In this document: positions 22,955 to 40,062 of the stretch, in pieces
Position numbering within the stretch: position 1 is the stretch's first letter
How the letters are laid out: every line of letters begins with the position of its first letter
Assembly: GCA_964506245.1 (NCBI GenBank)
Contig: CAZDKK010000014.1
Coordinates: forward strand, 21,792-85,791
DNA length: 64,000 nt
Reading direction: 5' to 3'
Origin: an uncultured bacterium
GTDB lineage: Bacteria > Eisenbacteria > RBG-16-71-46 > CAIMUX01 > WJJG01
Program-made: the position numbers and the translations under genes
The notes under the pieces: generated by a model
Told to the model about the DNA's origin: nothing
Seen by the model: the letters and a program-made list of their open reading frames with translations, nothing else
Databases searched by the model: none

Positions 22955-23210
22955 TCCTCACTCCACCTCAAATCCCTGACTCGAGAACTTGAGCGTCCTC
23001 CCGTTCTCCGTCACCACCCGCACCACGTGGTCGGGCACGCCTTCCGGCAGCGTGGCCTCGATCTCGAGCGTCACCCTGACCTTGGCCCCCGGCAGCGCGG
23101 CTAAGTGCGCGATCACCTCCTCGGCAATCTTCCCTGCGTCGGAGCCCAGGCGCATCGGGTTGGTCAGCTCGACGGTGCCGTAGAAGCGCCGCGGCTTGGG
23201 CGCGGGCGGG
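22955..23210 (-). repeat. Direct-repeat copy B (native 3' end of the DUF499 gene) paired with 21377..21632
   Basis: Aligns base-for-base with 21377..21632 starting a few nt downstream of the stop codon; identity is lost upstream of the PG-rich linker-coding region. Confidence 0.7.
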
Positions 23211-26200
23211 GGAACAGGCGCAGGCCCGGGGCCGGGGCCAGGCGTCGGTCCGGGTCCTGGTCCCGGGCCGGGCGCAGGACCAGTGGGCGTTGCCAGTGCT
23301 TCCTGGTCGATCTGCGTCCTTGCCACCTCCGGCCGCACCAGGAGCCCGGGAGCCTCGGGGCCCCCGATCACCACCTGCTGCCCAGCCCGCAGGCCCCGAT
23401 ACCGCCCGGCCGCCTCATCGAAGCTGTCCGCGTACCCGAACGCCTCGCGCTCCCAGGTGAGCAGCGCCACACCCTGCCGCACGGCCTCGACGAGCACCGA
23501 CGGCTCGACCAACCGCGGCAGGTAGAGGTACTTCGCGAAGTCTTCCACGAGCTGCTTGATCGCCACGTGATCCCCGCGCCAGAGCGGCACGCGATCGAGC
23601 TCCATGCGCAGGCGCGTGGCGGCGAAGCTCGTGATCAGGAGCTCGTCGTTCTTGAGCTTGCGACTCGCGCGCACGGCCAGCGCCTCGGACCCGGTCAGGC
23701 GGATGGCCTGCCAGTCGGCCGGCTCCTGGGGCTTCGACTGCACAGGGACGAGGAGCCACTGGTAGGCCTCCGGGACGCGCGCGGTGACGACGCTGTCGGC
23801 CGACTGCTTCTGGGTTTCGGCCTGCTTGGCCTGATGCGGGTCGAGGTTGAGGGTGTCCCTCTCAGCGACGATCGACTCCCACGCGAGGTAGCGGCGGGTC
23901 GCCTCGTCGAGATCCTGCAGCCGCGCCTTGTCGACGGCGAGGAAGACGAGCGTGTTGCGGAAGAGCCGCGGCGTGTTCCCGCGCGATTCGAGGATCGTCT
24001 TGGCCCGGCGCTTCGCCGGGCTCTCCACGGCCGCCGGCGTGCTTGCGGCGGCTTCCTTGCTGTACGGATGCTCGACGCTCAGCACGACCAGGCGCGCGTC
24101 GAGATCGTCGGGCACGTCGGCGCCGCCGCGGGGCATGGCGTGGACGCGCTCGAAGTCGCCCGTGCGGCGCAGGTCGGCGCGCAGGCGCCTCTCGATCTCC
24201 ATCACGACCTTGTCCTGGTCGCGGTTGAGCTGCTCGGCGCGGTCCTCGGCCAGCTTGGTGACGGTGGGCTGGGTCGAGTACCAGAAGCGCGGGCCGTCCT
24301 GGTAGAGATACGTGGCGGAGGCGGCCAGCCGGCGCAGGGCGTCGCCGAAGACGGCCGGGGACTCGCCCGGCATGACGCAGCCGAGCTTGACGCGACGGTC
24401 TTCGATGCCGCGATGGGCCGCGGCGGCCGTGGGCGCCGAGCCCATGTAGATCGTGCGCGCCACGCGGCGCGAGGCGTGGAGCTTGCCCAGGTTCGGGACC
24501 TCGCCGTCCTGTCGCAGGGGCAGCGAGTCGGGGCCGTCGACATCGCGGTCGATGACGGGCACCCAGTTGTCCGAGAGGTAGCGCGTCAACTCGAACCGCA
24601 CGCGCGAGTCGTCGATCGGGATCATCGACGGCAGGATGAGCGGGTTCTTGTCGCCCTTCTCCCACAGGCTGTGGATCACCGCCGCCATCAGGCGCAAGAC
24701 CCCGCGCGTGCGCTGGAACTTGACCAGCGTCGACCAGTCCGTATACAGGCGATCGAAGACCTCGGGGTGGATCGGGTAGGCGGCCTTGATGCGCCGCTCG
24801 TAGTCGGCGTTGCGACACTCGGGCGGGAACTCCTCGTGCTGGGTGCGATAGAGGTCGAAGAACTCGCGCGCCACGAGGTCGCGGTCCTTGAACTGCTCCT
24901 GCGTGACGAGCGGCTCGAAGAGCCGGCGCCGGACGATCTCAAAACCTTCCTCGGCGCTGGCCGGGCGCCACGACGACTCGAGCCGGCCGATGACGTTGCG
25001 CAGACGATCGAGCGCCTCGCGCCCGCGGACGCCGCCCACCTCGGCGTCGTCGGCCTGGGTGTGCGGCGAGCGCCCCGTGTCGGAGGCGGGCAGGCTGATG
25101 ACGAGCAGGCAGTTCTTGGCGATCTTGGCGGATTCGGTGAGGGCCTGGGCGAAGGTGAACTGCGTCTCGAAGGTACCGCCCGGGAGATCGCTCTGATCGT
25201 GGAGCTGACGCGCGTAGGCCACCCACTCGTCGATGAGGACGAGGCACGGGCCGTACTCCTTCAACAGCACGCGCAGCGCGTCGCCCGGGCTGGTGGCCTT
25301 CTCGTCGTCCGCGGCGATCCGGGCGAAGGCCTTCGCGGCCTCCTTCGCGCCGCCGGCCTGGAACCCGAGCTGCCAGGCCAGCTCGCCCCAGAGCGTGCGG
25401 ATGACCGTGCCGTCGGGCTTGGTCGCCGGATTGCCGGGCGAGATGCGGTTGCCGACGAGAACGATGCGCCTGGCCTTGGGCAGCGTCTTGACGTTCGCCT
25501 CGGCGAGCAGCGCGTCGACGCCCGCCAGCTCGCCCGGCGCGATGCCGGAGAACATGTGGTAGAGCGCGAGCATCGAGTGCGTCTTGCCGCCGCCGAAGTT
25601 GGTCTGGAGCTGTACAACCGGGTCGCCGCCCTCGCCCGCCAGCCGCCGCGCCGCGCCCACCAGCAGGTGCTTCAGGCTCTCGGTGAGGTACGTGCGCCGG
25701 AAGAACTCCGCGGGGTCGCGGTACTCGTCGGTGCCCTCACCCAGATGGACCTGCCACAGGTCGGCCGCGAACTCGGCCTGCTGGTAGCGGCCGCTGGCCA
25801 CGTCCCGGTGCGGGGTCACGACCTCGCGCCAGGGCTTGAGCGTCCCCGAAGCCTGCCCCTCGACGGGCGCGTCGGAGCTCTTGCGCTTCTGCGTGCGCAC
25901 CTGCTCGTCGAAGCGCAGGCGCAGCAGCTCCAGCTTCATCTTCTCGACTTCCCCAGCCTCCGCGGCCGAGACGGCCGTGAGCAGGCGCGCGGCGGAGTCG
26001 AGGACGCGGTAGGCGTCGTCGCCCGTGAAGGTGTGCTGGTGCGCCCAGTCGTTGCGGGCCTGCCATAGCTCGGAGACGAGCGTGCGCTCAGACTGGCCCA
26101 GCGTGCGCCGGAAGACGTCGTTCCAGGAATCCCACATGAGCTTGACGAGGGCGCCGACATCCCACTCGGAGATGTCCTTGCCCGCGAGCATGCGCTCGCC

Positions 26201-39300: not shown

Positions 39301-40062
39301 CAGCCGGTAGCGCTTCGTGTACTTGATCTCGCCGCCGAAGAATGTCGCCGAGAGCTTGTGCGCTTCATCGCAGACGACGAGGTCCCAGCGGCAGTCGGGC
39401 GCCTCGAGCTTGGCCTTCACATCCTCGTTGCGCGAGAGCTTGTCTAGGCGCGCGATCACAAGATCGTTCTCGAGGAACCAGTTGCCGGTGCGCGCAGCCT
39501 CGAGCTTGTCGTTGGTGAGGATGTCGAAGGGCAGGTGGAAGCGCCTACCCAGCTCGTCCTGCCATTGCTCGGCCAAACTACCTGGACAAACGACCAGACA
39601 GCGCTGCAGGTCGCCCCGCACGATCAGCTCCTTGATCAGCAGCCCTGCCATGATCGTCTTGCCCGAGCCCGGGTCATCCGCGAGCAGGAATCGCAGCGGA
39701 TGGCGCGGCAGCATCGCCTCGTAGACCGCCGTGATCTGGTGCGGCAGCGGCTCGACCAGCGAGGTGTGCACGGCGAGAACGGGGTCGAAGAGGTGCGCAA
39801 GGCGAATGCGGTGCGCCTCCGAGACGAGGCGGAAGAGCGCGCCGTCGCCGTCGAAGCTCCAAGGGCGTCCTTCCTCGACTACCTCGAGCCTGGGCTCGTC
39901 GTGGCGGTAGAGGAGCTGGTTCGCCACGCGGCCGGACGCGTCCTTGTAGGTCAGCTCGAGGGCCTCGGAGCCGAACCACTGCACGGTGACCACGGTGACC
40001 AAGCTGTCGGGGAGGATGCCGCGGACAGCCGCGTTGGGGAGGAGATGCTCGAGCTTGGTCAT
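36376..40062 (-). CDS. SNF2-family helicase with C-terminal DUF3883 (restriction-endonuclease-like); helicase component of Hma-like module
   Basis: Helicase motifs I LLADDPGSGKTIMAG, II DEAHKL, III TATPHNG and VI QRFGRIHRIGQT. C-terminal GYDIESRDPRTGKLRFLEVKGR...ILYSLNKPEEYLLAIVEF matches DUF3883. Confidence 0.9.
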   Translation of the reverse strand: MTKLEHLLPNAAVRGILPDSLVTVVTVQWFGSEALELTYKDASGRVANQLLYRHDEPRLEVVEEGRPWSFDGDGALFRLVSEAHRIRLAHLFDPVLAVHTSLVEPLPHQITAVYEAMLPRHPLRFLLADDPGSGKTIMAGLLIKELIVRGDLQRCLVVCPGSLAEQWQDELGRRFHLPFDILTNDKLEAARTGNWFLENDLVIARLDKLSRNEDVKAKLEAPDCRWDLVVCDEAHKLSATFFGGEIKYTKRYRLGQLLSGLTRHFLLMTATPHNGKEEDFQLFMALLDGDRFEGRFRDGVHVADVSDLMRRMVKESLLKFDGRPLFPERIAYTVPYKLSDAEARLYKEVTDYVREEFNRAEALQNDKRAGTVGFALTVLQRRLASSPEAIAQSLRRRHERLEKRMRELQLLQRGGAVPLPAEGMPLLDDEDVEDLDEAPDDEVAEAEEQILDQATAARTIEELRAEIATLTRLESLATEVRRSGADTKWRQLASLLGEILTSKALAGQVSEPPAPRGSGPIPPPAPSTRHKLVVFTEHRDTLNYLVNRITTLLGRPEAVVAIHGGMGREERRKAQEVFLHDPSTQILVATDAAGEGINLQRAHLMVNYDLPWNPNRLEQRFGRIHRIGQTEVCYLWNLVADETREGDVYRRLLDKLEEARKALGGQVFDVLGKLQFEGKPLRELLIEAVRYGEMPEVRAKLLRAVEAAVDRAKLQDLLEERALAHDAMDASKVARVREEMERAEARRLQPHYVESFFLEAFAQLGGTVRQREPRRYEVTHVPAPIRNRDRLIGAGEPVLPRYERITFEKELIAPPGLPLAAFVCPGHPLLDATLDLALERNRDLLRRGTALVDEGDPGTTPRVLFYLEHAIQDAATGRSPGTSWPAAPAMLASSGGHAGQPRTISRRMLYVELEAGGAARHIQYAPYLDYRPLRVDEPSIAAILARPECAWITRDLEQTAQAHAVGQVVPEHLEEVRNRRLEWIGKTRAAVKERLTKEIIYWDHRAEKLKLQEQAGKSGARLNSQEARRRADELQGRLERRLAELDREAQIAALPPVVLGGVVVVPAGLIAEMTGQALPAALAATLAARAAVDTQAAAARAREIVMEIERRLGFEPVDRETEKVGYDIESRDPRTGKLRFLEVKGRVSGAPTITVTKNEILYSLNKPEEYLLAIVEFTGGGASAEGEPGERGCRVHYVRQPFRREPDFGVTSVNYDFAELLRRGEEMG

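Follow-up and report, generated by a model that had tools for sequence, protein, structure and literature searches.

Do genes that lie together on one strand of a bacterial contig form a single anti-phage defense system that hosts others between its own genes, or are they unrelated systems side by side, and, if hosting is involved, how did the guests enter? This question is raised by positions 22958-40062 of the stretch of DNA analyzed here (termed the window), which spans 64,000 nucleotides of contig CAZDKK010000014.1 from an uncultured bacterium of the Eisenbacteria lineage, and which contains three large genes resembling the core (hmaA, hmaB and hmaC) of the helicase-methylase-ATPase (Hma) system. 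That system was described by Payne 2021, and its harboring of other genes was analyzed as 'guilt-by-embedding' by Payne 2024 (bioRxiv 10.1101/2024.01.29.577857), who found embedded genes in 62.7% of 1,485 Hma systems and 96.7% of embedded genes to be co-oriented with their host system, who viewed the cargo as working independently of Hma, and who left the origin of embedding open. The hma region has been called an insertion hotspot (PMC11232893), and Hma has been reclassified as a Type-1, DUF499-centered, bacteriophage exclusion (BREX)-related (BR) system, for which a mechanism resembling restriction-modification (RM) was proposed (PMC12839542). It is highly probable, in our judgment, that the region under study is one Hma (Type-1 DUF499-centered BREX-related) system in which two independent defense modules are embedded, all on one strand. 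Eight genes lie on that strand according to the open reading frame (ORF) listing, with the core in the order A-B-C (i.e., hmaA, hmaB, hmaC), a PDC-S01 gene in the A-B slot and a four-gene cyclic-oligonucleotide-based anti-phage signaling system (CBASS) in the B-C slot. This reading is carried by the identities of the genes, their intact motifs, the A-B-C synteny with its variable slots and the foreign composition of the CBASS genes.

The identities of the core proteins were established by profile searches. HmaA matches PADLOC profile PDLC00659 with 1653 bits (E = 0), its residues 1-1226 aligning with positions 1-1171 of 1176, and contains the Pfam domains SNF2-rel_dom, Helicase_C and NOV_C (formerly DUF3883). 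Its helicase motifs are intact (GSGKT at 132, DEAH at 232 and, as motif VI, QRFGRIHRIGQ at 619), and its NOV_C domain keeps GYDIES...LEVKG, that is, the nuclease residues D...EVK; HmaA is presumed to be the effector of Hma. HmaB matches PDLC00660 over the whole profile length (1491 bits, E = 0) and consists of DUF1156 together with MethyltransfD12, a D12 N6-adenine methyltransferase domain, with motif I (FAGGG) at 141 and motif IV (DPPY) at 574. HmaC matches PDLC00662 with 1141 bits (E = 0; residues 165-1123 on positions 2-940 of 941); its Pfam domains, HEPN_Swt1 and DUF499, are followed by a Pro/Gly linker and a small C-terminal domain, and it retains the HEPN motif RNDWAH (Rx4H) at 94, a Walker A motif (GGGKT) at about 250 and a Walker B motif (LVLIDE) at 365. 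Exact-protein look-ups of HmaA, HmaB and HmaC returned no record, and sequence searches of the PDB with HmaB, HmaC and PDC-S01 found no solved relatives.

An initial annotation of the window, made without database searches, had described three large minus-strand genes (an SNF2 helicase with DUF3883, a DUF1156 methylase and a Swt1-HEPN plus DUF499 ATPase), had recognized in them the Hma triad of the PADLOC literature, and had placed a DUF4143 AAA+ ATPase between helicase and methylase and a CBASS between methylase and ATPase. The ORF listing confirms the three genes at their coordinates; Pfam bears out their domains; the PADLOC HmaA, HmaB and HmaC profiles match near full length; and the literature on Hma and on embedding that it invoked is real (bioRxiv 10.1101/2024.01.29.577857, PMC11232893). 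The DUF4143 ATPase is likewise recovered by Pfam and by the PADLOC profile for PDC-S01, as is the CBASS, in the form of four genes (cap4-cdnD-cap2-cap3), by Pfam and PADLOC. Of the two outcomes that the annotation named as fatal to its proposal--failure of the profile searches, and absence of co-localization in relatives--the first did not occur, the three genes being NOV_C-SNF2, DUF1156 and DUF499 homologues, and neither did the second.

For this second comparison 160 related loci were used, 80 of them genomic and fetched via HmaB, and 80 metagenomic and fetched via HmaC. Among these relatives HmaB and HmaC reach at best 72-75% identity and HmaA up to 84%; their hosts belong to many phyla, and no close relative of the locus was found among the loci fetched. 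In 55 of the 80 nearest genomic relatives the triad is co-localized, with its genes in the order A-B-C on a single strand; the remainder are mostly cut by contig ends or rearranged, and the same order is seen in most metagenomic loci that are long enough to show it. The window combines the domains of HmaA, HmaB and HmaC in co-localized, co-oriented genes with an association that is kept across genomes.

These data bear directly on the possibility that the region is an ordinary defense island, in which neighboring systems are unrelated and the helicase does not constitute one system with the methylase and the ATPase. Other genes, and spacers of 160-400 nucleotides (nt), do intervene between the triad genes; moreover, Halomonas HmaA protects by itself, restricting T4 through its NOV_C nickase (PMC11232893), and hmaB or hmaC is missing from about 15-20% of hmaA neighborhoods (PMC11232893). 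An ordinary island is nevertheless largely refuted, and we consider it extremely improbable, given that 55 of 80 distant relatives from many phyla keep the three families in this order on a single strand, that the triad genes abut in a number of relatives (with gaps of 11-80 nt), and that PADLOC finds no match among the flanking window ORFs scanned. Because of the latter result there is no larger defense island around the locus, which agrees with the published remark that Hma usually lies outside larger defense islands (bioRxiv 10.1101/2024.01.29.577857).

Compared with known systems, the locus shares with published Hma its protein families, gene order, orientation and co-oriented embedded defense genes. 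It also shares the typical traits of Type-1 BR systems, namely a HEPN-fused DUF499 ATPase, a DUF1156 methyltransferase and an SNF2 helicase with an active PD-(D/E)xK nuclease (PMC12839542); a HEPN fusion has been noted in 1,370 taxa, and helicase and nuclease are fused in 79% of the Type-1 taxa (PMC12839542). There is no substantial difference between the Type-1 BR core and that of the window, and PMC12839542 makes no mention of CBASS, DUF4143, recombinases or inversions. In Halomonas meridiana HmaABC, HmaA likewise joins SNF2 to NOV_C with the D/E/K residues, and the hma region likewise carries inserts, with Septu between hmaA and hmaB, so that the cargo differs from that of the window; for Halomonas HmaC the annotation gives no more than a DUF499 ATPase, and the tests made in Halomonas were confined to HmaA and to T4 (PMC11232893). 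Each core protein of the window is also a distant homologue of a member of the NCBIfam 'anti-phage-associated' triad NF042962-NF042964 (Type-2 BR-like). Membership in that DUF499/DUF1156/PLD-helicase triad was rejected, the scores lying far below the curated cut-offs (158 vs 1200, 119 vs 1000 and 153 vs 1100 bits, respectively); its nuclease is a phospholipase D, whereas that of the window is a PD-(D/E)xK enzyme (NOV_C).

The larger cargo, within the B-C slot, is a type II CBASS of which no component is missing; it belongs to the CdnD/Cap4 kind, as the cyclase, Cap4 and Cap2 match solved homologues. The cyclase (PADLOC PDLC00822, 505 bits; Pfam SMODS), in which the active-site GS...DVD is present, aligns end to end over residues 1-373 with the 'Cyclic AMP-AMP-GMP synthase' of PDB entries 7D48/7LJL (E = 1.5e-107). 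Cap4 matches the PADLOC CBASS effector 'Endonuclease' PDLC00752 with 525 bits, as well as SAVED_PDDEXK and Pfam SAVED, and aligns over its full length with 7YIB, 'CD-NTase-associated protein 4' (E = 2e-41). Cap2 matches the PADLOC E1-E2 profile PDLC00848 (618 bits), Pfam ThiF and the Cap2 structure 7TO3 (E = 8e-73). For Cap3 there is a Pfam Prok-JAB match (E = 7e-11) with the JAMM motif HYHPSPSVEPSQED, NCBIfam Cap3-related matches scoring below their cut-offs. An active-site-bearing cyclase, Cap2 with Cap3, and a SAVED-fused effector are therefore found together. From its homology to the solved cyclase, the CBASS signal is probably cAAG-like (i.e., similar to cyclic AMP-AMP-GMP). All four components are shared with the Enterobacter cloacae-type CdnD/Cap2/Cap3/Cap4 CBASS (7D48, 7LJL, 7TO3, 7YIB), from which the window's CBASS differs in sitting inside another defense operon and in that its signaling nucleotide is one that we infer.

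The nearest CBASS relatives (loci L163-L165) share the gene order cap4-cdnD-cap2-cap3, and the contexts of the nearest homologues are short contigs, one of which adjoins the BREX gene brxL; an identical cyclase is on record only in two short Logan contigs and one NCBI contig. The relative next to brxL (L165:311-2365), whose cyclase is 67% identical, lies immediately downstream of that gene, and this CBASS lineage therefore adjoins BREX-type systems more than once. No homologue of the window's CBASS was found in any of the 160 related loci, and nothing accordingly indicates that this particular CBASS recurs as Hma cargo.

The smaller cargo, within the A-B slot, encodes PDC-S01, a protein of 439 amino acids (aa) that matches PADLOC PDLC04787 with 305 bits, that consists of the Pfam domains AAA_14 and DUF4143--the profile match and domain pair by which this family is recognized--and whose Walker A motif is GVRRSGKT. 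It is a candidate ATPase-nuclease. PDC-S01 is reported as the fourth most common defense system across prokaryotes, though only as a candidate. Among the 160 related loci one (L023) carries an S01 homologue in a slot, in this case the B-C slot. Two palindromes of the form TCCTT-N5-AAGGA (36219-36233 and 36252-36266) overlap the PDC-S01 ribosome-binding site and start codon, 2 copies thus occurring in one spacer as against 0.02 expected in the whole window, and a predicted hairpin (z = -2.2) spans the Shine-Dalgarno sequence and AUG. A similar palindrome, TCCTTGTAGGAAGGA, is found at L023:12925-12945, directly upstream of the S01 homologue, which is 50% identical to that of the window. The palindromes could be a translational hairpin or an operator, and a PDC-S01 gene in a clean operon with a conserved palindrome over its ribosome-binding site offers a handle for expression studies.

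How ordinary such cargo is can be judged from the slots of the relatives, a comparison that the initial annotation had proposed. An A-B gap longer than 500 nt, or a B-C gap longer than 600 nt, was counted as filled. By this definition 76 of 102 measurable loci have a filled A-B slot and 42 of 137 a filled B-C slot, empty slots being 11-80 nt long; in general, inter-gene gaps can be as short as about 10 nt or can exceed 5 kb, and the cargo in them differs. PADLOC matches among 147 slot ORFs include HEC-01, Septu PtuA, AbiL and AriA/GajA-like ABC ATPases. Extra co-oriented genes thus lie between the core genes of the window and the cargo varies across related loci, so that the survey reproduces the published picture of Hma embedding. 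Hma itself, its relationship to BREX, embedding and the use of slots to find cargo are already published, and the locus is thus a minor addition to the catalogue. Its kind is an ordinary one; specific to this locus are an unusually large cargo and a recombination scar (see below). The B-C cargo, four genes within 5,629 nt, exceeds that of all 137 measurable relatives (the largest being 5,110 nt), and the combination of PDC-S01 with a four-gene type II CBASS is unusual. Moreover, the published Hma census allowed at most three embedded genes per slot (bioRxiv 10.1101/2024.01.29.577857), whereas the B-C slot of the window holds four, and neither the text of the guilt-by-embedding preprint nor those of its supplementary files that were consulted mention CBASS as Hma cargo. 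A four-gene type II CBASS can therefore be Hma cargo, and one of such size would escape a three-gene census as embedded.

The same comparison speaks to whether the cargo is wired to Hma as a back-up that fires upon phage anti-restriction, as does PrrC in EcoprrI. PrrC in EcoprrI and BrxU in BREX are likewise single, co-oriented defense genes nested in a modification-based system; functional coupling has been shown for PrrC, whereas the nesting in the window is known from sequence alone. A back-up role would fit the single orientation and tight spacing of the genes (the PDC-S01 stop lies 21 nt from hmaB), the logic proposed in the literature for embedded systems, and the position of a close CBASS relative directly after brxL. 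It fits less well with the high variability of cargo in the relatives (the window's CBASS occurring in 0 of 160), with the completeness of this CBASS family, which is found on its own elsewhere, and with the published view that cargo is independent of Hma (bioRxiv 10.1101/2024.01.29.577857); we therefore hold such wiring to be rather unlikely and favor independent modules.

The base composition of the locus is uneven. G+C content at third codon positions (GC3) is 0.91 for hmaA, 0.93 for hmaC, 0.82 for hmaB and 0.84 for PDC-S01, as compared with 0.67-0.75 for the four CBASS genes; the CBASS block is the compositionally most foreign part of the locus.

The feature also reaches beyond 22958-40062, and here it bears a trace of how genes may have been exchanged. 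The hmaC 3' end (22948-23208) and a segment 1,576 bp downstream of it (21372-21632) form a 261-nt direct repeat that is 90% identical. The downstream, orphan copy is in frame, is preceded by TAG, starts at the Pro-rich linker and ends 5 nt beyond the stop; tblastn of HmaC against it gives 94.7% identity over 75 residues. Because 14 of the differing codons are synonymous and 5 non-synonymous, the two tails have diverged within working genes rather than by decay in place. The orphan tail is the more host-like (GC3 0.95 vs 0.915 in the current tail), and within hmaC GC3 falls from 0.95 to 0.83 after codon 972. The 1.3-kb insert between the copies has no homologues in the 160 related loci; its ORF (21789-22529) has a signal-peptide-like N-terminus, a DVUA0089-family match (NCBIfam NF038127, which scores 31.6 bits where the cut-off is 29) and a PEP-CTERM-like tail that Pfam recognizes weakly (E = 0.009). 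PADLOC matched neither this ORF, which with the eight flanking ones completes the nine other window proteins scanned, nor one insert ORF of locus L009. The orphan is probably the displaced original hmaC 3' end: a donor fragment (an hmaC 3' part with 1.3 kb) may have recombined in, using a homology anchor in hmaC and an illegitimate join at the linker, and would thereby have displaced the original tail.

It might be argued that the duplicated tail and insert are an assembly artifact, in which two strain variants have been joined in series, since the source looks environmental, since the identical cyclase is known only from those short Logan contigs and one NCBI contig, and since 90% identity between the tails is possible for strain variants. 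Three observations make this unlikely: the copies are separated by 1.3 kb of unique DNA with a plausible gene; an independent metagenome-assembled genome (L009) is arranged in the same way, around insert DNA that is unrelated; and orphan hma ends recur in relatives (e.g., L009:8061-8234 and 17413-17544). Mostly these are orphan hmaB 5' ends, which lie inside the slots just upstream of cassettes in L003, L009, L016, L042, L047, L098, L111/L136 and L139; hmaC ends are less frequent, and in L013 (13041-13241) it is an hmaC 5' end that precedes a cassette. No description of such ends beside cargo was found in the Hma and BREX-related papers cited. The scar, together with these ends, suggests homology-anchored recombination as a cargo-loading route. 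From this perspective--which we put forward tentatively, as somewhat short of an even chance--the hma genes would be portable homology arms and the orphan ends footprints of recombination between diverged hma loci. Cargo loading would then be anchored in the most conserved hma segments and proceed by homology-facilitated illegitimate or Campbell-type insertion, and, besides the two slots, the region downstream of hmaC might serve as a third site at which cargo collects. A concrete, testable hypothesis for how embedding arises is thus provided by the orphan fragments and the duplicated end of hmaC.

Composition within hmaB had raised a related possibility. GC3 steps at codon 299 (near 33977) from 0.957 for codons 1-299 to 0.761 for codons 300-969 (Fisher p of about 1e-15; the observed value was reached in 0 of 500 permutations), as if the 3' two-thirds of hmaB had been imported with CBASS in one event. 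This is unsupported as a specific claim, a difference in the same direction being present in most relatives, those with empty slots included: the N-terminal third of hmaB is GC3-richer across 135 relatives (mean difference +0.067, standard deviation 0.064), the difference is still +0.053 in those with an empty B-C slot, and the window's value is the 4th highest among 136. The step seems to be a general property of hmaB, not specific to this locus, which fits with the 3' part of hmaB generally being exchanged more often or being less codon-adapted.

The size of the insertions suggests yet another explanation, namely that they have disabled Hma, through polar effects or lost stoichiometry, and that it persists as a decaying scaffold hosting active cargo. 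Consistent with this are the B-C insert exceeding that of every measurable relative, the 400-nt spacer before hmaC and the rearranged hmaC 3' end. However, the three core ORFs are full length with intact catalytic motifs, the GC3 of hmaA and hmaC (0.91-0.93) is very high and host-like, and the replacement hmaC tail differs non-synonymously from the orphan at just 5 of 83 codons; a disabled Hma is accordingly very unlikely. The 400-nt spacer between cap3 and hmaC had no Rfam match, a fold z-score of -0.7 and no similarity to the 160 related loci, and folding of the 200-nt spacer gave no significant structure. The 400-nt spacer could hold the hmaC promoter.

If the region is a working Hma system with independent guests, it would operate approximately as follows. 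HmaB would methylate adenines of host DNA as a self-mark, while HmaC (an ORC/STAND-like ATPase with winged helix-turn-helix domains and a C-terminal domain) would scan for or sense unmodified invading DNA; HmaA, as an SNF2 translocase with a PD-(D/E)xK nickase, would then translocate and nick or cleave that DNA, which amounts to restriction. A last-resort (suicide) RNase may be provided by the HEPN domain at the N-terminus of HmaC. Independently of Hma, the CdnD-like cyclase would be primed by Cap2 and trimmed by Cap3 and, on infection, would make a cyclic trinucleotide (probably cAAG-like), binding of which by the SAVED domain of Cap4 would turn on the Cap4 DNA endonuclease and lead to abortive infection. 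CBASS and S01 most likely act independently, riding along with the operon, into which they were probably brought by recombination that used conserved segments of hma genes as anchors.

Several points weigh against this reading. PDC-S01 and its L023 homologue read EVD...QVC in the stretch where a PD-(D/E)xK motif would be expected for the DUF4143 family. Defense by PDC-S01 has never been demonstrated, and most such PADLOC candidates lack experimental testing. The 160-, 200- and 400-nt spacers contain no promoter or terminator consensus above that of shuffled sequence, so that the coupling of hmaC to hmaB could be lost across the 5.6-kb insert. A GC3 difference like that within hmaB is seen in relatives with empty slots as well, and the recombination view of the hmaC-tail orphan is built on two loci. 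The mechanistic steps given above for Hma are drawn from the literature, every activity at the locus being a prediction, and the RM-like model of Hma is itself unproven; in Halomonas, HmaB overexpression left T4 sensitivity to HmaA unchanged and HmaA worked alone (PMC11232893).

Table 1. Coordinates, strand and content of the hma locus, in the order in which it is read
Feature	Position in window	Strand	Content
hmaA	36376..40062	-	SNF2-family helicase with C-terminal NOV_C (DUF3883) PD-(D/E)xK nuclease
AT-rich spacer, GC 0.56, upstream of PDC-S01 gene	36216..36375	-	two palindromes
PDC-S01 gene (embedded cargo 1)	34896..36215	-	AAA_14 ATPase with DUF4143, COG1373 type
hmaB	31965..34874	-	DUF1156 N6-adenine DNA methyltransferase
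cap4-like effector (cargo 2, gene 1)	30238..31764	-	predicted endonuclease with SAVED sensor
CdnD-like CD-NTase (cargo 2, gene 2)	29081..30223	-	predicted oligonucleotide cyclase
cap2 (cargo 2, gene 3)	27226..29091	-	E1-E2 fusion
cap3 (cargo 2, gene 4)	26736..27233	-	JAB/JAMM isopeptidase
Non-coding spacer, 400 nt, cap3/hmaC	26336..26735	-	non-coding-like GC pattern
hmaC	22958..26335	-	Swt1-type HEPN with DUF499 AAA+ (ORC/STAND-like) ATPase
Lower-GC insert, 1.3 kb, downstream of hmaC	21633..22947	-	GC 0.606; ORF 21789-22529
Orphan hmaC 3' end	21372..21632	-	last ~83 codons, stop and 5 nt

Two of the gene models in Table 1 require comment. The cap2 start is most likely the GTG at 29091, as in the gene call on an identical Logan contig (L081), in which case cap2 overlaps cdnD by 11 nt. 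The frame of cap3 (26736-27233) differs from that of an overlapping 215-aa ORF at 26339-26986; this ORF was considered as a fifth CBASS gene and ruled out, as it has no family match and its composition is not coding-like, and it is probably spurious.

Seven relatives (L038, L060, L065, L068, L070, L075 and L076) contain a second hmaB copy placed head to head with hmaB, which is a near-full-length ORF in six of them and is split into two ORFs in L038. The first approximately 350 codons of the paired copies are up to 98.6% identical at the DNA level, the middle and C-terminal parts having diverged, and in five loci (L038, L060, L065, L068 and L075) the DNA between the copies encodes one or two tyrosine recombinases of about 290-420 aa; in L070 the single ORF tested there has no Pfam match. 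In L065, for example, the copies occupy 4828-7395 (-) and 10001-12922 (+), and the recombinase genes 7475-8347 and 8334-9479. Such a pair could be an invertible methylase module that switches specificity; the arrangement is not mentioned in the BREX/BR or Halomonas papers.

Beyond the locus, the flanking genes look chromosomal: Pfam identifies among their ORFs a TonB receptor, a histidine kinase, a beta-lactamase-family protein, and LVIVD and Ig-repeat proteins, and no integrase among those scanned, no systematic integrase scan having been made. A tRNA scan and an Rfam search over the whole window returned no matches. A co-directional gene run at 53809-60009 (-) may be another conflict system: a Double-GTPase 2 (DO-GTPase2) domain is found in one of its products, a protein of 785 aa (54692-57049), beside which are encoded a 303-aa protein with no family match and a 669-aa protein with a borderline match to the type VI secretion system (T6SS) protein VasE, PADLOC matching none of the three. 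Finally, a 453-aa protein at 62615-63976 shows a weak match, close to the Pfam cut-off (E = 1.8e-5), to the C-terminal toxin-binding domain of Xre/MbcA/ParS antitoxins.

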